A stretch of DNA of 64,000 nt from Candidatus Krumholzibacteriia bacterium (GCA_035649275.1 DASRJW010000024.1:3759-67758), one strand, 5' to 3'; counted from the first letter of the stretch, positions 6,613 to 57,679 are shown. A program made the numbers and translations. The notes: generated from the letters alone by a model not told the origin.

Positions 6613-7978
6613 ACCCCTGTCGTCGCGGTCCATGGCGCCGACGGTCATCGCTCCGGGCCACACCGCTGCCACGGTGACCGACAAGATCGCCGCCGTGGTC
6701 CTGCAGCGGACGCCGCTCTGGTTCTATCCGGCGTTCGGAGCGGCCTTCATGCTGCTCATGACCTTGCTCTACGCCATCACCTACCTCTTCGCCAAGGGCG
6801 TCGGCATCTGGGGCGTCAACAACCCGGTGGGCTGGGGCTTCGCCATCATCAACTTCGTCTGGTGGATCGGGATCGGTCACGCCGGCACGCTGATCTCGGC
6901 GATCCTCCTCCTCATGCGCCAGAAGTGGCGCACTTCGATCAATCGCTTCGCCGAGGCCATGACCCTCTTCGCCGTGGCTTGCGCCGGCTTGTTCCCCATC
7001 CTGCACCTGGGGCGCCCTTGGCTCGCCTACTGGCTCTTCCCCTACCCGAACACCATGTGGGTGTGGCCGCAGTTCCGCAGCCCGCTGATCTGGGACGTCT
7101 TCGCCATCTCCACCTACATGCTGGTGTCGCTCATGTTCTGGTACGTCGGGCTGATTCCGGATGTGGCGACGCTGCGCGATCGCACGAAAAACAAGATCGG
7201 CCAGATCGTCTACGGCATGATGGCCATGGGCTGGCGCGGCTCGGCGAAGCACTGGCACCACCACGACACCGCTTGCATCCTGCTGGCGGCGCTGGCCACG
7301 CCGCTGGTGGTGTCGGTGCACTCGGTGGTGAGCTTCGACTTCGCCGCCGGCATCATTCCCGGCTGGCACACCACGCTCTTCCCGCCCTACTTCGTGGCCG
7401 GCGCCATCTTCGCCGGCTTCGCCATGGTGATCACGCTCTGCATTCCGCTGCGCGCCGCTTTCGGCCTGCACGACTTCATCACCGAGTGGCACGTGCGCAA
7501 CATGGCCAAGGTCATGCTGGCCACGGGCCTCATCGTCAACTACGGCTACGGCATCGAGCTCTTCATCGCCTGGTATAGCGGCAGCCCCTACGAGACCTTC
7601 ATGCTCAGCAACAGGATCGGCGGGCCGTACCGCTTCATCTGGTACGCCCTCATCCTCTGCAACGTGGTGGCGACGCAGTTCCTCTGGTCGGCGAAGGTGC
7701 GTTCCTCCGCCGTCGCCCTCTGGGTGGTAGCCATGTTCATCAACGTGGGGATGTGGCTCGAACGTTTCGTCATCGTCGTCACCAGCTTGCACCGGGACTT
7801 CATGCCCTCCGCCTGGGGCATGTATTACCCCACCAAGTTCGACTGGATGACCTTCCTGGGCAGCATCGGTCTGTTCCTCTCCCTCATGTTCCTCTTCGTC
7901 CGGCTCCTGCCGATGATCTCGATCTTCGAGATCCGCGGCATCCTGCCCAAGACACGGGCAGGGGAAAGGAGCGCCTGA
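6602..7978 (+). CDS. actC: Alternative Complex III subunit ActC (NrfD/PsrC-like polytopic membrane quinol-binding subunit)
   Basis: Highly hydrophobic multi-TM protein (WWIGIGHAGTLISAILLLM, LFPYPNTMWVWPQF) in the expected operon position. Confidence 0.8.
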   Translation: MATEPLSSRSMAPTVIAPGHTAATVTDKIAAVVLQRTPLWFYPAFGAAFMLLMTLLYAITYLFAKGVGIWGVNNPVGWGFAIINFVWWIGIGHAGTLISAILLLMRQKWRTSINRFAEAMTLFAVACAGLFPILHLGRPWLAYWLFPYPNTMWVWPQFRSPLIWDVFAISTYMLVSLMFWYVGLIPDVATLRDRTKNKIGQIVYGMMAMGWRGSAKHWHHHDTACILLAALATPLVVSVHSVVSFDFAAGIIPGWHTTLFPPYFVAGAIFAGFAMVITLCIPLRAAFGLHDFITEWHVRNMAKVMLATGLIVNYGYGIELFIAWYSGSPYETFMLSNRIGGPYRFIWYALILCNVVATQFLWSAKVRSSAVALWVVAMFINVGMWLERFVIVVTSLHRDFMPSAWGMYYPTKFDWMTFLGSIGLFLSLMFLFVRLLPMISIFEIRGILPKTRAGERSA

Positions 7979-48999: not shown

Positions 49000-49983
49000 T
49001 CAGGTGCGGGTGGGGGCACCGGCCAGGGAGGCGCTCAAGACTTGCGCCAGCGCCGGCTCGGTGTGCCCTTTGGCATGCAGATGACGCAGCGTGTCGTGCA
49101 CCAGGGACTCGTCGCACCAGAAGCCCTGGTCCAGCATCCACAAGCTCGCCACCAAGGCTTCGTCCAGGTCGTGCTCGTACTCCGCATGCACCAGGAGACC
49201 GGCATACCAAACGCCGAGCAGCGCCATGGAGAGCAACAAGTGCCAGCCGGCGATCATCCCGGTCGGCGACGCCAGCGCCACGTTGCCCAGCGTACGATGC
49301 TGCAGATAGCTCTCGAGCAGCTGCCGTTCGGCGCGGGAGAGCTGCGGGAAGCTCCAGGCGCGATTCGACCCCGCAGTCCGCGCCAGATCGGCCATCCACT
49401 CGGCGAAGGCAGGCGAACCGGTGCGGGTCACCAAGTGGTTGGTGAGCTGCAAGGCATAGTCCGGTGCCGACGGCAGGTGCTCGCCCTCCAAACCGAGATC
49501 GTCGATCGCCTTCTTGCTCTCCCAGGCTTCGCAGAGAACCTGGAGCTCGCAGGGCGAGCGGCCGCGCCAGCTGCGCAGCGTCTCCTCCACCACGGCCAGG
49601 CGATGCCGGCCCTGGGCGAGGCCGGCGCCGGGATTGTCCCCCGCGGCCGCGAGATCATCCTGCAGGCCGTCGGCGATCCAGTAGAAGTGCCCCCAGGGCA
49701 GTGCCAGATCCGGTGCCAGGCGCACCTCGTGCACATCTTGCAGCGGCACGTGGCGGAGCGGTGCGGTGTCGCCATCCACTTCGACGCTGATCTCGAAGGG
49801 CTGCGTCTGCAACAGTGCTCGCAAGGCTTCACGGCTCGACGGCATGGCTTGCAGGTAAATGCGACGCGGCGTGCGCAGCGCGAACACCGGTTCCAGAGGC
49901 GACAGATCCAGCAGACTGCTGGGGATCCAGCGCACGTGCTGCGCTTCCATCGGCCCGTCGTCCAGGCGCTCGTCCTCTAGCAT
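49000..49983 (-). CDS. Hypothetical protein (327 aa)
   Basis: Clean ORF convergent with thrC (18-nt gap). No family recognised. Confidence 0.45.
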   Translation of the reverse strand: MLEDERLDDGPMEAQHVRWIPSSLLDLSPLEPVFALRTPRRIYLQAMPSSREALRALLQTQPFEISVEVDGDTAPLRHVPLQDVHEVRLAPDLALPWGHFYWIADGLQDDLAAAGDNPGAGLAQGRHRLAVVEETLRSWRGRSPCELQVLCEAWESKKAIDDLGLEGEHLPSAPDYALQLTNHLVTRTGSPAFAEWMADLARTAGSNRAWSFPQLSRAERQLLESYLQHRTLGNVALASPTGMIAGWHLLLSMALLGVWYAGLLVHAEYEHDLDEALVASLWMLDQGFWCDESLVHDTLRHLHAKGHTEPALAQVLSASLAGAPTRT

Positions 49984-51664: not shown

Positions 51665-52576
51665 ATGGAGCGCCGGCACGGCCAGGATGAGCCTCGGGTC
51701 TTCGAGGATCACCGTGACAATCTCACCGTGGACGTGCAGAACGTGCTCATGCAGGAACGCGCTTCGCAGTTGCGCAGCGAAGACAGCCAGGTGGCACTGC
51801 TCTGGAACGTCTTCCGCTCGCTGCAGAACCTCGATCCGCGCCTTTGGCTGCCCCGTCTCGTTCTCCAGGCGCTGGGAGCCAAGAAAAGCAACCCACGCCT
51901 GCGCGGACTGCTGGCACCGAGTCAGCTCGTCGAACCTGTCTTCCATTGGTGGCAGCGGTACGACCTGCCCCCGAGCCGGCACGAGTGGCTCCGCGACCAG
52001 ACGACCCACGGCAACCTCGACCTCGGCCACTATCCCGCCTGCTACGTGCCGGAAAAGAAGGCCGAGGCGTCGCGGCTGCTGCAGGAAGGTCTGTTCCTGG
52101 AAGAACGGGTCGAGGTCCCCCTGGTCATCGAAACTTCGTCTTTCTGGCTCGGGATCCTGGCCGTCTACAAAGGCAACCTGCGCCAGCACAGCCGCTTCGA
52201 TGCCAAGCGCGACGATCTCCTGCGCTTGCTGGACGCTGGGACTCATCAGGCCACGTTGGCAGGGAAGAGATTCCTCGGGCTCGTCCTCTACACCGATGCC
52301 CGCACCTACAACACCGAGACCAAGCGTCTCTTGGATCTCTACCGCAGCCACGGCGACATGCTGGTGTCGCGCTTGCCGCACCGCCAGGACTCCGCGGTGA
52401 TCACCGAAGCGGCCCGGCTCCTCGGCGAATTGCGCTGGCGCGACCTGGGCGGTGTCCTCCTGGACACGAAGGAAGAAGAGCGCATCGGCCTCTTCGATCT
52501 CGCGGTCCTGGACGAGCTGATCAAGTACCTGGCGCGCAAGGACGTCGGCTTCAATCTGCTGCGCCGTCTCAAGTGA
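51665..52576 (+). CDS. Hypothetical protein (304 aa), possibly PD-(D/E)xK-like
   Basis: ATG at 51665 (MERRHGQDEPRVFEDH). Segment VEVPLVIETSSFWLGILAVYKG is a weak nuclease-core resemblance. Confidence 0.45.
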   Translation: MERRHGQDEPRVFEDHRDNLTVDVQNVLMQERASQLRSEDSQVALLWNVFRSLQNLDPRLWLPRLVLQALGAKKSNPRLRGLLAPSQLVEPVFHWWQRYDLPPSRHEWLRDQTTHGNLDLGHYPACYVPEKKAEASRLLQEGLFLEERVEVPLVIETSSFWLGILAVYKGNLRQHSRFDAKRDDLLRLLDAGTHQATLAGKRFLGLVLYTDARTYNTETKRLLDLYRSHGDMLVSRLPHRQDSAVITEAARLLGELRWRDLGGVLLDTKEEERIGLFDLAVLDELIKYLARKDVGFNLLRRLK

Positions 52577-52593
52577 AAACCGCCCCGACTGTC

Positions 52594-52663
52594 GCTGCCG
52601 TTGAGTTCAGCTGCCGTGGATCCTTCCCCGTCGACCGCTGCCGTGGACCCCTGCTGCCGTTGA
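52594..52663. repeat. Four direct copies of GCTGCCGT(T/G)GA at 52594, 52610, 52637 and 52653, flanked by a 9-10 bp inverted repeat (52576-52586 / 52713-52721)
   Basis: Read directly from the 143-bp intergenic region upstream of the FG-GAP gene. The pattern is TTGA/TGGA/TGGA/TTGA with spacings 16/27/16. Confidence 0.6.
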
Positions 52664-52719
52664 CCCCTGGGCGCATCCCTGACTAGACTCGAAAGTCTGC
52701 CTTTCCCGGGGAGGGCGGT

Positions 52720-53469
52720 TTGTTCTGGCGTCGACTGGTTTGGCTCGTCCTGCTGGGGTGCCTCACGCCCACGGCGCTCTATGGCGATTTCCTGACGCCC
52801 CGCGCCGCGGACTTCGCGTCCAAGTACCCGCCGTTGACGATGGTGAACGGCCCGCAACGGCGGCTCCTGTTCGGCAGCTACCGCGGTACGTTGCAACTGT
52901 TCGAGAGCCGCAACGGCAAGCTCGTCGAGGTGAAAACCCGGGAGCTGTGGTCGCCGGTGGTGCGCATCTACGCCGCCGACCTGGACGGCGACGGCCAAGA
53001 TGAAGTGGTGGGATACACGCAGAACGCCCGACTCTTCGTCCTGCGTGGTTCCGATCTGCAGGACATCTGGAACACACCGGAAAAGCGGTTCAACAGCATC
53101 TCTGCCCTCACTCTGGGTGACGTCGACGACGACGGCCAGCTGGAGATCGTCTTCATCGCCGACAACCTCCTGCGCTTCTACACGGCGCTGCAGGACGTGG
53201 AGGAATGGAAGAGCACGATCACCTTCACCAACGCCACCGAGATCGCCATCGGCGATGTGGACGGCGACGGTGGCCTGGACATTGTGCTCAACTCCGGCAT
53301 CGTGCTCGGCGCCGTCTTCCGCGACGTGAAGTGGACGTACACCACCGGGTTCGGCTCTCGCATCGACCTCTACGACATCGATTCCGACGGCAAGCTGGAG
53401 ATCGTGGGCTACGGTGGTGACGGGTTGATGCGAGTCTTCGACGTCGACGAGCGTCGGTTGAAATGGTGA
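52720..53469 (+). CDS. FG-GAP/VCBS-type repeat protein (secreted or membrane-anchored)
   Basis: Four DxDxDG-type repeats (DLDGDGQDEVV, DVDDDGQLEIV, DVDGDGGLDIV, DIDSDGKLEIV). N-terminal hydrophobic segment. TTG start with GGAGGG SD. Confidence 0.65.
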   Translation: MFWRRLVWLVLLGCLTPTALYGDFLTPRAADFASKYPPLTMVNGPQRRLLFGSYRGTLQLFESRNGKLVEVKTRELWSPVVRIYAADLDGDGQDEVVGYTQNARLFVLRGSDLQDIWNTPEKRFNSISALTLGDVDDDGQLEIVFIADNLLRFYTALQDVEEWKSTITFTNATEIAIGDVDGDGGLDIVLNSGIVLGAVFRDVKWTYTTGFGSRIDLYDIDSDGKLEIVGYGGDGLMRVFDVDERRLKW

Positions 53470-53792
53470 GTACGCCCTCCCCTGGGTGAGGGGGGTGCCA
53501 CGGGACGGGATTCGCCGCCGCAAGAGACTTCCGCCGGGACCGTCAGCGCCACCCGCCGCCCCCGCACCCGCTTGTCGGCGCCCCCACCTACCACGCCGTC
53601 GGCGCCTCCCCCGACGCACCACCTGTCGGCGTCGGCCCCCAACCCACCACCGACCGAGCGCTCGTGACGACCGGGGAAATTCCAGCAATTGGTTCCGCTG
53701 CTTGCACCGGTCTTGCGGAGAAGGTGCCATGGTATCCCGCAGCGGAGCCGGGGCTGGTCCGCAACCGGTTGTAGAAACGCGCGTTGCGTTGA

Positions 53793-53801
53793 TGGTATAC
53801 T
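53793..53801 (+). promoter_or_regulatory. Extended -10 promoter element TGgTATACT upstream of the large outer-membrane protein gene
   Basis: TGGTATACT at 53793-53801, about 58 nt upstream of the TTG start at 53860 (SD GGAGGA at 53850). Confidence 0.3.
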
Positions 53802-53859
53802 GAACCGGGTGTCCTTCGTGTCGTGACGCGCCCACCCGGGCGCCTCCACGGAGGACCGC

Positions 53860-56800
53860 TTGCGTTTCCCTCGACACCTCGGGTTCTTGCTCCTCGGCCT
53901 CGTCGCGGTACCGGCGCAGGCGCAGCTGCAGTACTTCGGCAAGAACAAGGTCGAGTACGAGGAGCAGGACTGGCGTGTCCTGCAGACCCGGCACTTCGAC
54001 GTGCACTTCTACGCCGGTGAAGCGGCCATGGTGCACGACGCGGCGCGCTTGGCGGAACGGGCCTACACCGAGCTCGCCGCCGTCCTCGGTCACGAGTTGC
54101 CGCGGCGCATTCCCCTCGTCCTCTACGCCTCGCACTCCGACTTCCAGCAGACTCACATCACGCCGTCCATGATCGACGTCGGCACCGGGGGCATCACCGA
54201 TCTGGCGCGGCGGCGCGTCTTCCTGCCCTTCAACGGTTCCTGGGGCGACTTCCAGCACGTGCTCACCCACGAGCTCGTGCATGCCTTCGAGATCGACATT
54301 CTTTTCGATTCCACCCAGGGCGATCCGCTGAATCCCTTCGCCTTCGCGCCGCCGCTCTGGGTGATGGAGGGCCTGGCCGAGTACCTGTCGCGGCCCCAGC
54401 AGGACAGCTACACCGCCATGTGGCTGCGCGATGCGGCCCTCTCGGGACGGCTCCTGTCGCTGCCGCAGCTGGAGCAAGTCCAGGACATCCGTATTTACCG
54501 CTTCGGCCAGAGCGTCTTCTCCTACTTCGCCGAGCGTTACGGCAGCCGCCGCATCGGCGACCTGCTGCGTGCGCTCGCCACCAGTCGCAGCCTGGAGCGG
54601 GCGTTCGAGGATGTCGCCGGCGTCTCGTTGCAGCAGTTCTCCGAGGCGTGGACCACGGCCGTGCGCCGGCGGCACCTGCCCGAGCTCGGGCAGCACCAGC
54701 TGAACCGCGAGTACGCCACCCCGGTGGTCACCCGAGAGAGCGAGAACGCCGGCATGCTCCTCGTGCCGAGCATCTCGCCGGACGGCCGCTACCTGGCCTA
54801 CGTGAGCGACGCCGGGCTCACCCGCGACCTCTATGTCCGCGATATGGAGGAAGGGCGCTCGCGCCGGGTCGTGCACGGCGAGCAGAGCGGAGACTTCGAA
54901 TCGCTGCGTTTCTTCAACGCCAGCGCCGCCTGGGCGCCCGACGGCAAGACCCTCGCCTTCGTCTCGCAGTCGCGCGGCGAGGACGCCCTCAATCTCCTCG
55001 ACGTGCAGCGCCGACGTGTCGTCGCCAAATATCGCTTTGGTCTCGACGAGCTGCAGACTCCGACCTTCTCGCCGGACGGCGGCGAGCTGGTTTTCGTCGG
55101 TCTCGAGGGTGGGCAGAGCGATCTCTATCGCGTCCGCAGGGATGGCACCGATCTGCGCCGGCTCACCGCCGACCGCGCCGGCGAGCGGGATCCGCAGTGG
55201 TCACCGGACGGCCGGAAACTGGTCTACGTCACCGATGACGGTGAGGACGCGGACTTCGAGGCACTGCGCTTCGGCACTTGGAAGATCGCTCTTCTGGAGC
55301 TGGAGAGCGGCAGACGCGAATTGCTACGCCCCTTCAGAACAGGTGCCGCTGCCAGCCCTGTCTGGTCCGGAGACGGCGGCTCGATCGCCTTCATCGCCGA
55401 CCCGGACGGCATCCCGAACATCTATGTGCTGCACCTCGCGACGTCGAACGTCTTCCGCCTCACCGACACGGTGACCGGTGTGGGTGGCGTCTTGCCGGAG
55501 AGTCCGGCCCTGTCCTGGGCCCGGGGGAGCGATCGCCTGGTGTTCTCGGCCTTCGGTAACAGCGGCTGGGACATCTTCCGTATCGACCGCCCGGCCAGCG
55601 TCATGCGTCCCCTGGAAGGCGCCATCGCCAACCTCGTCACGAAACACGGTGCGACGGAGGCGGCAGGCCTTGTCGCTCCCGACTCCATGAGCGCGGTCAG
55701 CACAGTGGCGGACTCCGTCGCTCGCGACTCCCTCGCGATGAAGACCGTGTCGGTCGACTCCATCGCGCCGTCCTCGGTTGCTCGAGACACCATGGCGCCG
55801 TCCTCGCTTGCGTGGGACGGTATCGCGCCAGCCTCGGCTGCTCGCGACTCCAGCGCGGCCGCTGGCGCAGCATCGGCGGCCCTTCACCCCGGCGCCGGCA
55901 TGACCTCGCCGGCGGCGGCCACGACGCCGCCAGGCGTGCTGCTGCCGGCGCCCGAAGCGATGGATTTCGTCGAGCGCCCGTACCATGCGCACCTCGCCCC
56001 CGATGTCTCGCAGGTAGCAGGGGTCGTGGGAAGCCAGGGCGGTTTCGGCGGTGCCTCGCTCATCCACTTCAGTGACCTCCTCGGCGATCATTTGCTCAGT
56101 GTGGGCTTCGGCATCTATGGCTCGCTCAAGGATTCCGATCTTTCCCTCGAGTATCTGAACCGTTCGGGACGAACGAACTACCAGTTCGGCGTTTTCCAGC
56201 ACCAGCGGCGTTACGGGTTCCTGGCCTCCGCGGTAGCCGGAGTCGAGAAGCAGACGTATCTCGGCGTGCGCGCCGCCGCGATCCGTCCCTTCGACAAGTT
56301 CTCTCGTGTCGAAATGTCGATGCAGCTCGCCGCTGTTCGCGGCCGCTTCTTCTTGGGTGAGACCTTGGGGGATGGGAGCGTGCAGGAGCTACGCAGCTTC
56401 GCGGGCCCCGGGCTCGCCTACGTGGTGGACACGGCGCTCTTCGGTTCCACCGGCCCGATCATGGGGCGTCGCCTGCGCCTCGGCCTCGAGTCCGGTTTCG
56501 GCGAGCTCGACTTCCGCACCCTCGAACTCGACTGGCGGCAGTACTGGAGCTTCGGGGCCAGTTTCACGCTGGCCGCCCGTGGCTACCTCGCCGGGAGCTG
56601 GGGGGCGACGCCGCAGAGTTTCTTCCTGGGTGGAGCGAACACGCTGCGCGGTTACGCCTACGGCGCGCTCGCGGGAACTCACGCTGGTCTCGCAGGACTG
56701 GAGTTCCGCTTCCCACTCCTGCGCTACCTCGCCCTCGGCTGGCCCTTGCCGCTCGAGCTCGGCAACGTGCGCGGCGTTCTCTTCGCCGAATCCGGCTCGG

Positions 56801-57000
56801 CTTGGGACAGCGTGTGGCTTCGCACCAGCCGCGCGGCCGCGGGGATGGACGTGGATCTGGGGCCGCAGGTGGCCTACGGCTTCGGCACGCGCATCGATTT
56901 CGGCGCCTACATTCTTCGCCTCGATTGGGCGCAACTCTACGATCCGCGCACGGGCCACACGCGGCGCGGCTCGAGTGTCGCTGTCGGCGCGGACTTCTAG
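53860..57000 (+). CDS. Multidomain outer-membrane protein: N-terminal HEXXH zinc-peptidase-like domain, PD40/TolB-like beta-propeller, and C-terminal Omp85/surface-antigen-like beta-barrel
   Basis: Signal peptide LLLGLVAVPAQA. HEXXH motif as HELVH within VLTHELVHAFE. PD40 repeats (SPDGRYLAYVSD, WAPDGKTLAFVSQ, FSPDGGELVFV, WSPDGRKLVYVTDDG, WSGDGGSIAFIADPDG). C-terminal alternating hydrophobic beta-strands ending in an aromatic residue (AVGADF). Confidence 0.6.
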   Translation: MRFPRHLGFLLLGLVAVPAQAQLQYFGKNKVEYEEQDWRVLQTRHFDVHFYAGEAAMVHDAARLAERAYTELAAVLGHELPRRIPLVLYASHSDFQQTHITPSMIDVGTGGITDLARRRVFLPFNGSWGDFQHVLTHELVHAFEIDILFDSTQGDPLNPFAFAPPLWVMEGLAEYLSRPQQDSYTAMWLRDAALSGRLLSLPQLEQVQDIRIYRFGQSVFSYFAERYGSRRIGDLLRALATSRSLERAFEDVAGVSLQQFSEAWTTAVRRRHLPELGQHQLNREYATPVVTRESENAGMLLVPSISPDGRYLAYVSDAGLTRDLYVRDMEEGRSRRVVHGEQSGDFESLRFFNASAAWAPDGKTLAFVSQSRGEDALNLLDVQRRRVVAKYRFGLDELQTPTFSPDGGELVFVGLEGGQSDLYRVRRDGTDLRRLTADRAGERDPQWSPDGRKLVYVTDDGEDADFEALRFGTWKIALLELESGRRELLRPFRTGAAASPVWSGDGGSIAFIADPDGIPNIYVLHLATSNVFRLTDTVTGVGGVLPESPALSWARGSDRLVFSAFGNSGWDIFRIDRPASVMRPLEGAIANLVTKHGATEAAGLVAPDSMSAVSTVADSVARDSLAMKTVSVDSIAPSSVARDTMAPSSLAWDGIAPASAARDSSAAAGAASAALHPGAGMTSPAAATTPPGVLLPAPEAMDFVERPYHAHLAPDVSQVAGVVGSQGGFGGASLIHFSDLLGDHLLSVGFGIYGSLKDSDLSLEYLNRSGRTNYQFGVFQHQRRYGFLASAVAGVEKQTYLGVRAAAIRPFDKFSRVEMSMQLAAVRGRFFLGETLGDGSVQELRSFAGPGLAYVVDTALFGSTGPIMGRRLRLGLESGFGELDFRTLELDWRQYWSFGASFTLAARGYLAGSWGATPQSFFLGGANTLRGYAYGALAGTHAGLAGLEFRFPLLRYLALGWPLPLELGNVRGVLFAESGSAWDSVWLRTSRAAAGMDVDLGPQVAYGFGTRIDFGAYILRLDWAQLYDPRTGHTRRGSSVAVGADF

Positions 57001-57037: not shown

Positions 57038-57679
57038 CTACTCCCGGTACAGTCGCTTCACCACGTCCCAGTGCGTCGACTGGACGGCGACCGTCGTCGT
57101 ACCCGTCGTGAAACGCCAGACCGGACCCGAGACCTTGCCACAATCCTGGTCGGGGCTCGCTACGACTCGCCAGTAATAGGTGGTTTCCGGCTCCAGGAGT
57201 CCGGGAGTGAAAGGCTGGCAATCCTCCAGCGCGAGGCACACCAGCGGCGGGTCCGGGGTGGTCCCGAAGTACACATTGACGTACGCCGTGCCGATACCGC
57301 AGCAGTAAGATGGCCCCGTCGATCCCCAGGTCAACTGCGGTTCACGGGTTACGTTGACCGCCGCATCCAGCGGAAGTGGATCCGAAGGCACCGGGAGCAG
57401 CGGACCCGGTGAGGTCGAGCCACCCTGGACCGAGACCGCGGTGAACAACGGCGAGTTGCAGCGGTGGACGACAGGACCATCGATCGCCGGATTGCTCGGC
57501 GTGTGGTGGCCGGTGACCTGCAAGGCATAGACCGGCGACTGCCCCGGGGGAGCGAGAATCGTCACCGTGTAAAGCAGGACGGCGCCGTAGGCGGTGCCCG
57601 GGCAATCGCTGAAGCTCATGGCGCACCAATCTCCGAACGGGTCACCGATGGCGATCGCCGCAGGGTTAGGCGTCACCAC
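57038..57679 (-). CDS. Hypothetical protein with an FN3-like segment; possible N-terminal truncation or frameshift
   Basis: GTG start; ETTYYWRVVA...GPVWRFTT is FN3-like. A roughly 45-codon ORF with an AAGGAG SD lies just upstream in another frame. Confidence 0.4.
   Translation of the reverse strand: MVTPNPAAIAIGDPFGDWCAMSFSDCPGTAYGAVLLYTVTILAPPGQSPVYALQVTGHHTPSNPAIDGPVVHRCNSPLFTAVSVQGGSTSPGPLLPVPSDPLPLDAAVNVTREPQLTWGSTGPSYCCGIGTAYVNVYFGTTPDPPLVCLALEDCQPFTPGLLEPETTYYWRVVASPDQDCGKVSGPVWRFTTGTTTVAVQSTHWDVVKRLYRE

Follow-up and report, generated by a model that had tools for sequence, protein, structure and literature searches.

The plus strand of a 64,000-nucleotide stretch of DNA from Candidatus Krumholzibacteriia bacterium (GCA_035649275.1 DASRJW010000024.1:3759-67758, referred to below as the window) encodes a protein of 1046 amino acids (aa) in which an N-terminal zinc peptidase domain, a PD40 beta-propeller and a C-terminal Omp85-type beta-barrel follow one another. 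This Krumholzibacteria protein is an ordinary member of an Omp85 subfamily that is bioinformatically catalogued and experimentally unstudied. Judging from sequence, its N-terminal domain looks like an active gluzincin of clan MA(E), and the family is apparently catalytically competent. Taken as a whole, the protein is best explained, with somewhat better than even confidence, as a zinc protease anchored in the outer membrane and facing the periplasm on a flexible tether. The sequence-only reading that preceded this work had proposed that peptidase, propeller and barrel are combined in a single polypeptide, and all three indeed lie within the same open reading frame (ORF), whose parts are listed here.

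53860..57000, plus strand: ORF of 1046 aa with a TTG start, encoding peptidase, propeller and barrel
53860..53922, plus strand: predicted Sec signal peptide, residues 1-21 (MRFPRHLGFLLLGLVAVPAQA, then Q22), with an AXA site read by eye (…VPAQA)
53932..54714, plus strand: predicted gluzincin (clan MA(E)) peptidase domain, residues 25-285, M9-/M1-like, from hidden Markov model (HMM), profile and Foldseek comparisons
54268..54369, plus strand: predicted catalytic core H137-E138-L-V-H141 and E170 in W167-x-x-E-G-x-A-E-Y175, from alignment
54718..55629, plus strand: PD40 (TolB-like) beta-propeller, residues 287-590, about six blades, from HMM, AlphaFold2 (AF2) model and Foldseek
55645..55944, plus strand: disordered Ala/Ser/Pro/Asp-rich linker, residues 596-695, with a predicted local distance difference test score (pLDDT) below 50
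55969..57000, plus strand: Omp85-type 16-stranded beta-barrel, residues 704-1046 and stop codon, from PF01103, model and Foldseek
56644-56655, plus strand: L6 motif LRGY, residues 929-932, from alignment and model

The window has a GC content of about 68%, at which long chance ORFs are expected, and ORF length was therefore given little weight. The 1046-aa ORF and a 249-aa ORF for an FG-GAP repeat protein upstream of it were found exactly where the sequence-only reading had placed them (53860..57000 and 52720..53469, with a gap of 390 bp). Both are regarded as genuine genes because of their third-position GC (0.86 for the 249-aa and 0.84 for the 1046-aa gene), the existence of an NCBI protein of equal length from a Candidatus Krumholzibacteria metagenome-assembled genome (MAG) that is 100% identical to the 1046-aa product over its full length, and thousands of homologues.

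Mean column identity is 0.68 in the peptidase, the most conserved module of the family, and falls to 0.61 in the propeller, 0.56 in the barrel and 0.15 in the linker. In an alignment of 117 full-length homologues with 36-87% identity, residues H137, E138, H141, W167, E170, G171 and E174 are invariant (117/117). The earlier claim of an HEXXH peptidase is thus upheld by the HELVH motif at residues 137-141, which belongs to an invariant gluzincin site and does not align to a non-catalytic family. A third zinc ligand had been expected 18-25 aa downstream of this motif; the predicted ligand, E170 (in WVMEGLAEY), is present, at the wider spacing of 29 residues past H141. In M9 collagenases, the HExxH and the glutamate are separated by about 28 residues, a spacing that the one found here resembles. 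Residues Y213 and R214, invariant in an alignment of 104 sequences, align to the RIYRWG sequence of M9 enzymes, and the tyrosine of this R-x-Y-R-x-G block presumably corresponds to the transition-state-stabilising tyrosine of Grimontia collagenase. The predicted zinc site is complete and invariant, not degenerate.

When a profile of the isolated domain was compared with PDB sequences, microbial M9 collagenases were the only meaningful relatives (7wss, E=7e-4; 7esi, E=0.026), with the HExxH, W-x-EG-AEY-S and R-(V/I)-Y-R-(F/W)-G blocks lining up; the WxxEGxAEY and RxYRxG blocks of the Vibrio and Grimontia collagenases align in this way. A separate AF2 model of residues 25-290 (pLDDT 83), compared by Foldseek, matches the catalytic domains of M1 aminopeptidases (IRAP, 5e-5; Deinococcus M1), while its top query-normalised TM-scores are to M9 collagenases (7wss, 0.62; 4ar8, 0.59). 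In this region, DSSP of the AF2 model gives an active-site helix at 128-148 and a glutamate helix at 166-177, and M9 and M1 gluzincins share a fold of thermolysin type in which one helix carries the HExxH and another the glutamate. The HExxH and downstream glutamate on a thermolysin-like fold place the domain in clan MA(E). Neither the activator and collagen-binding/PKD domains of M9 enzymes nor a recognisable GXMEN motif or the N- and C-terminal domains of M1 enzymes were found in the protein. Upstream of the domain, residues 1-24 have pLDDT values below 50. An FGxNKV motif (F26-G27-x-N29-K30-V31, at 53932-53952) stands right after the predicted signal cleavage site and is invariant in 104/104 homologues; its region is modelled with low confidence (pLDDT about 56 for residues 21-30), and the motif might serve as a strand on which a partner or the barrel docks.

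In a full-length AF2 model built on the 104-sequence alignment (mean pLDDT 82.5; predicted template modelling score, pTM, 0.84), a helical domain with a small sheet (38-285) is followed by the propeller (287-590), a disordered segment (596-695) and the barrel (713-1043). The propeller, which had also been anticipated from the sequence, is supported by this model, by strong PF07676 and DPPIV_N (PF00930) matches at about residues 290-600 (PD40, 84.8 bits) and by its likeness to TolB, the best both in structure and in sequence (Foldseek against PDB, E=1.5e-12, with 235-243 columns at a root-mean-square deviation of 2.2-2.9 Å; phmmer, 4e-18). S9 peptidases and DPP-IV are also among the matches, as are the Tricorn_N and Tricorn_2nd Pfam models. 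The protein does not belong to TolB itself, as TIGR02800 reaches 122 versus 343 bits and matches with the propeller part of the model only; TolB has an N-terminal alpha/beta domain that is lacking here, and the gene lies outside any tol-pal operon. Only the propeller is captured by the JGI label 'Tol biopolymer transport system component'. In the AF2 model, the propeller is predicted with high confidence to be contiguous with the peptidase.

Between propeller and barrel, a linker is found in every family member. It is 49-221 aa long (median 110), rich in Ala, Pro, Glu and Ser, and never conserved. Within its coding DNA in the window, a 30-bp unit occurs 1.9 times in succession (55756-55812, 85% match), which gives an ...APSS(V/L)A(R/W)D... 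peptide repeat and suggests that linker length changes by tandem duplication.

The C-terminal surface-antigen barrel of the sequence-only reading proved to be a 16-stranded Omp85 barrel, and its prediction held up to the C-terminus. PF01103 matches residues 860-1025 with 37.5 bits (cut-off 24), 16 long strands were counted between residues 713 and 1043 in the DSSP output of the AF2 model, and Foldseek retrieves Sam50, BamA, TamA and Toc75 from PDB at E values of about 1e-9. In the L6 motif, R930 is found in 104/104 and G931 in 102/104 sequences, and G924 and G925 are invariant. The C-terminus, ...VAVGADF, is a typical outer-membrane protein (OMP) beta-signal with an aromatic end; the eight commonest C-termini of the family, found in 76/104 sequences, all end in [D/E]-F. 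No POTRA match was obtained in Pfam or NCBIfam scans of the 1046-aa protein, and the disordered linker is followed by only about 17 ordered residues before strand 1 begins, which leaves no room for such a domain. The protein is therefore a member of the Omp85 superfamily by its barrel, L6 motif and beta-signal, without the POTRA domain. Models of individual families are far from being reached (BamA TIGR03303, 15.9 versus 297 bits; TamL NF052279, 17.5 versus 400; Omp85_fam NF047779, 29.8 versus 200), and 'BamA/TamA family outer membrane protein', the name given by NCBI to the identical entry, is valid only at the superfamily level.

Proteins with this architecture are numerous. Among 8,000 candidates scored, 2,711 proteins matched at E<=1e-5, and a genome survey based on a motif scan derived from the alignment, with one genome per GTDB species, confirmed 569 of the 600 stretches listed, placing relatives in at least 569 species-representative genomes. 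The 80 loci kept for comparison, all from phyla of the FCB group, belong to Eisenbacteria, Latescibacterota, Gemmatimonadota, Zixibacteria, Calditrichota, Ignavibacteria, Bacteroidota and Marinimicrobia. The peptidase domain alone, in an exhaustive HMMER search, matched 3,939 representatives of 50%-identity clusters, 729 of them at E<=1e-30; in the top 150 matches, as read from the list, about 70% of the proteins have at least 900 aa, with the domain at about residues 20-290. Soluble forms devoid of a barrel, considered for matches of 585-660 aa, were rejected. These short matches look truncated or frameshifted, ending in linker or in frameshift-like sequence, and one keeps the C-terminus of the barrel; they thus provide no evidence for barrel-less forms, and no convincing barrel-less copy was found among them.

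Ten subfamilies of Omp85/TpsB proteins were defined by Heinz and Lithgow in 2014, including a 'WD40-Omp85/WD40-like' one whose propeller is closest to TolB and which is without POTRA (PMC4104836, Front Microbiol 5:370). Lack of POTRA is a trait of both the WD40-like and the noNterm subfamilies (PMC4104836). In that work, the WD40-like cluster displays the same Pfam combinations, PF07676/PF00930 with PF01103 (Table S2), and the approximately 100 members listed in Table S3 have BamA/TamA matches for the barrel, TolB matches for the propeller and a 'best aminopeptidase hit' (1z5h, 4kxd, 3qnf, 4ar1, 4ar9) at about 99% Phyre2 confidence (PMC4104836). They come from Gemmatimonas, Rhodothermus, Salinibacter, Caldithrix, Cytophaga, Ignavibacterium, Myxococcales, Vibrio and Geobacter (PMC4104836). 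The protein of the window has the same tripartite build, with a propeller, a PF01103 barrel, no POTRA and the same aminopeptidase- or collagenase-like extreme N-terminus. Because full-length homologues with 33-38% identity occur in many Gemmatimonadota MAGs, its sequence very likely makes it a member of the WD40-like subfamily. The architecture, described as uncommon in the sequence-only reading, is therefore that of a named and widespread subfamily. Krumholzibacteria were outside the sample of the 2014 study, which mentions the peptidase in its supplement only, includes no analysis of catalytic-site conservation and reports no function.

The main text of the same study treats these proteins as BamA-BamB-like fusions, in which the propeller would be a scaffold for partners of the machinery for beta-barrel assembly (BAM), and the barrel would insert OMPs with no part for proteolysis. 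The hallmarks of Omp85 that are kept here (16 strands, the RG motif of L6 and the likeness to BamA, TamA and Sam50) speak for such an assembly factor, as does the fact that BamB is a propeller (PMC4104836). Nevertheless, an invariant zinc site within the most conserved module is not accounted for, and POTRA, which a passage of PMC11116518 ascribes to all characterised Omp85 insertases and translocases, is absent. Moreover, the propeller is of TolB/PD40 type, whereas the prototypical BamB is eight-bladed (PMC11358297), and the BamA and TamL scores given above are far below threshold. A purely non-proteolytic assembly role is thus considered highly improbable.

The orientation of the protein was read from the DSSP strands and loops and the pLDDT values of the AF2 model. 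The longest loops of the barrel (828-845, 914-941, which bears LRGY, and 982-1003) all lie on one face, and the turns on the face of the N- and C-termini have at most 8 residues. BamA likewise has long L4, L6 and L7 loops on one face. The first strand would start on the short-turn face, which would be the periplasmic one, with L4, L6 and L7 on the other face as in BamA, so that the peptidase-propeller unit would hang in the periplasm on its flexible tether. By analogy, this periplasmic location is favoured over the cell surface by the modelled barrel topology and by the precedent of PlpD. PlpD, a patatin-Omp85 protein long classed as a 'type Vd' self-exporter, was shown to keep its enzyme domain in the periplasm instead of secreting it, and its authors argue that folded N-terminal domains cannot be driven through an Omp85 barrel that is itself folded unless energy is supplied (PMC11116518). 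It offers the best functional analogy for the anchoring of an enzyme; its enzyme domain is N-terminal to a 16-strand Omp85 barrel as in the present protein. PlpD forms homodimers and carries POTRA and a lipase, whereas the protein described here has a peptidase, a propeller and a 100-aa disordered linker instead.

In the opposite orientation, the N-terminal module would be exported through or alongside its own barrel in a type-V-like manner, with the linker spanning the barrel or the lipopolysaccharide layer, and the enzyme would break down proteins outside the cell for nutrition. The closest relatives of the peptidase are secreted M9 collagenases, PD40 propellers are common in peptidases (S9 peptidase and DPP-IV matches), the long, flexible Pro/Ala/Ser-rich linker could serve as a stalk, and Rhodothermus, Salinibacter and Caldithrix have several paralogues per genome (PMC4104836). 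However, export of a folded enzyme joined covalently to the N-terminus is not known for any Omp85 protein. PlpD, the one case proposed, was shown to be periplasmic (PMC11116518). The passenger, about 570 residues long, would consist of helical and propeller domains that fold fast, to be moved with no ATP and no POTRA domain, and the long L4, L6 and L7 of the model suggest a capped lumen as in BamA. Gene neighbourhoods are of housekeeping type rather than nutrient-uptake loci. Surface display is therefore judged unlikely.

For the protease anchored on the periplasmic side, the following scheme is proposed. The barrel would be inserted into the outer membrane by BAM, and the peptidase-propeller unit would act as a membrane-anchored zinc endo- or oligopeptidase in the periplasm. 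The propeller would restrict or recruit substrates, either unfolded polypeptides or peptides, by analogy with tricorn, DPP-IV and S9 peptidases. Its most likely job would be a housekeeping one in the envelope, such as clearing away, close to the outer membrane, envelope proteins that are misfolded or unassembled, in the manner of BepA. Housekeeping context in other phyla and wide conservation suggest a core envelope function, and by analogy the protein may plausibly take part in the turnover or quality control of envelope proteins close to the outer membrane. Passages of PMC8423444 and PMC13478230 describe BepA as a zinc metalloprotease that takes part in OMP quality control at the outer membrane and BAM. 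This periplasmic HExxH zinc protease, which has a repeat-type domain for binding proteins, is probably analogous in function; it combines M48 with TPR, is soluble and binds BAM non-covalently, whereas the present protein would join an M9-/M1-like gluzincin, a propeller and a barrel of its own.

Several points weigh against a tethered periplasmic protease. The Peptidase_MA_2 match (PF13485, residues 65-268) has 28.5 bits for a cut-off of 32.4, and the Peptidase_M9 match (PF01752) is weak, with 20.6 bits for a cut-off of 26; the domain was placed in neither family because the window sequence misses both cut-offs. PF13485 is among the precomputed matches of many close homologues, including the identical NCBI entry. 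M9-type collagenases are typically extracellular, and several genomes contain multiple paralogues (Table S3, PMC4104836), so that a nutritional, surface-exposed role would fit too. Literature searches turned up no experiment on any member of the family, and both substrate and activity are purely inferred.

The barrel may also be more than an anchor. With a BamA-like seam, it would attach sideways to BAM, or join with OMPs stalled half-way in folding to give a hybrid barrel, and the tethered propeller-peptidase would degrade these substrates. We regard such an active barrel as distinctly unlikely; if true, it would provide phyla of the FCB group with a self-contained machine for OMP quality control, roughly BepA and BamA in one polypeptide.

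The single locus adds little, as NCBI already has the identical protein and the architecture has been catalogued since 2014. It is the family as a whole, large, conserved across phyla and functionally unexplored, that merits attention. What is added to the 2014 catalogue is that the predicted zinc site is invariant, that the peptidase is the module under the strongest conservation and that the linker is always present and never conserved. The function of the family would reveal how POTRA-less Omp85 scaffolds are re-used, and how envelope proteolysis is carried out in Bacteroidota, Gemmatimonadota and related candidate phyla.

Upstream of the fusion gene, the FG-GAP gene and the elements of the 390-bp gap are arranged as follows.

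52720..53469, plus strand: gene of an FG-GAP/VCBS-type repeat protein, 249 aa, TTG start
53772..53801, plus strand: sigma-70-like promoter match from a motif scan, TAGAAA, 18 nt, TG-n-TATACT (extended -10)
53808..53855, plus strand: conserved 5' leader, from an alignment of four sequences
53808-53820, plus strand: leader element GGTGTCCTTCGTG, from alignment
53828-53843, plus strand: 6-bp GC hairpin GCGCCC-ACCC-GGGCGC, just upstream of the Shine-Dalgarno sequence
53850-53855, plus strand: Shine-Dalgarno GGAGGA, from sequence

Three Krumholzibacteria relatives were compared, in which the Omp85 protein is 86%, 69% and 54% identical. The extended -10 element announced for the gap is present as TG-n-TATACT within 53772-53801, and this site is kept in two of the relatives, L081 and L082, as TTGTAGAAA...TGaTATACT. 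In a 5-kb region, two promoter-like sites were found versus 0.2 expected from shuffles, one before each gene. The first ten bases of the leader element, GGTGTCCTTC, are identical in 4/4 aligned Krumholzibacteria sequences, including the 54% relative, and pairing in the hairpin survives a C-to-T change in L082 that is compatible with a G-U pair. The conserved leader may be an element that controls translation, or just the 5' end of the transcript. A structured RNA element in the gap was rejected, as there is no Rfam match at E values up to 1 and only the promoter, the short hairpin and the ribosome-binding site are present.

The 249-aa protein has an FG-GAP_3 match (3.2e-16), four DxDxDG repeats and an N-terminal, signal-peptide-like export segment. 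The idea that it is a BamB-like lipoprotein was rejected: the window sequence has an LLGC motif, Cys14 is absent in both relatives with which it could be compared (63-74% identity), and there is thus no conserved lipobox. In the 86% relative, L081, on a contig of about 4x coverage, the gene call for this protein has only 92 aa (7371-7649), which could be due to a frameshift or assembly error or to real decay; if real, decay would argue against an obligatory partnership.

Such a partnership, suggested in the sequence-only reading, would make the locus a two-gene system in which the FG-GAP protein is a dedicated partner of the Omp85-peptidase, either substrate adaptor or regulator, a proposal orthogonal to the other alternatives. 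It draws on the position of the FG-GAP gene, which directly precedes the fusion gene in the same orientation both in the window and in three relatives with only 54-86% identity in the Omp85 protein, on the good conservation of the FG-GAP protein itself and on its export signal, which would bring it into the same compartment as the peptidase. However, the order PALP, 327-aa gene, aroA, 300-aa gene, FG-GAP, Omp85 fusion is kept in 3/3 relatives (downstream genes vary), so that adjacency may reflect inherited gene order. The spacing between the two genes varies: the window has 390 bp, and the two relatives in which the FG-GAP call is intact have 215 and 135 bp. In the window, a separate promoter-like site precedes each gene. 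Furthermore, tblastn detected an FG-GAP homologue in none of the 80 orthologue loci of other phyla (flanks up to 10 kb). The recurrent neighbours in those loci are RsfS, L9 (rplI), S6 (rpsF), SMC and a SPOR protein, and an operon partner conserved across phyla was rejected because only housekeeping neighbours recur. The adjacency is real within Krumholzibacteria and inseparable from general synteny. On these grounds the partner claim is weak and a dedicated two-gene system improbable; the upstream FG-GAP gene is probably a lineage-specific neighbour only.

In some Krumholzibacteria relatives, other genes around the orthologue include an AsmA/YhdP-like gene upstream in L083 (1-2016) and LptC, ABC ATPase and RpoN genes downstream in L082 (16575-19039). 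These envelope-biogenesis genes do not adjoin the orthologue and their position is not conserved. In the window, aroA is flanked by genes for hypothetical proteins of 327 aa (49000-49983, minus strand) and about 300 aa (around 51665-52576, plus strand), both without a Pfam match and both syntenic in 3/3 relatives. The further flanking genes (aroA, a Ser/Thr kinase, a HAD hydrolase and a histidine kinase) give no functional hint. An antisense ORF of 845 aa (52339..54876, minus strand), rich in Arg, Gly, Pro and Ala, runs across the FG-GAP gene and the gap behind it into the beginning of the Omp85 gene and is taken to be a high-GC artefact rather than a gene. Directly downstream of the Omp85 gene, a convergent ORF of 213 aa (57038-57679, minus strand), without a Pfam or NCBIfam match in HMM scans, encodes a Cys- and Pro-rich product with a ...TTYYWRV...GPVWRFTT ending. 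At the same place, the 69% and 54% relatives have no gene and the 86% relative has one of 294 aa.

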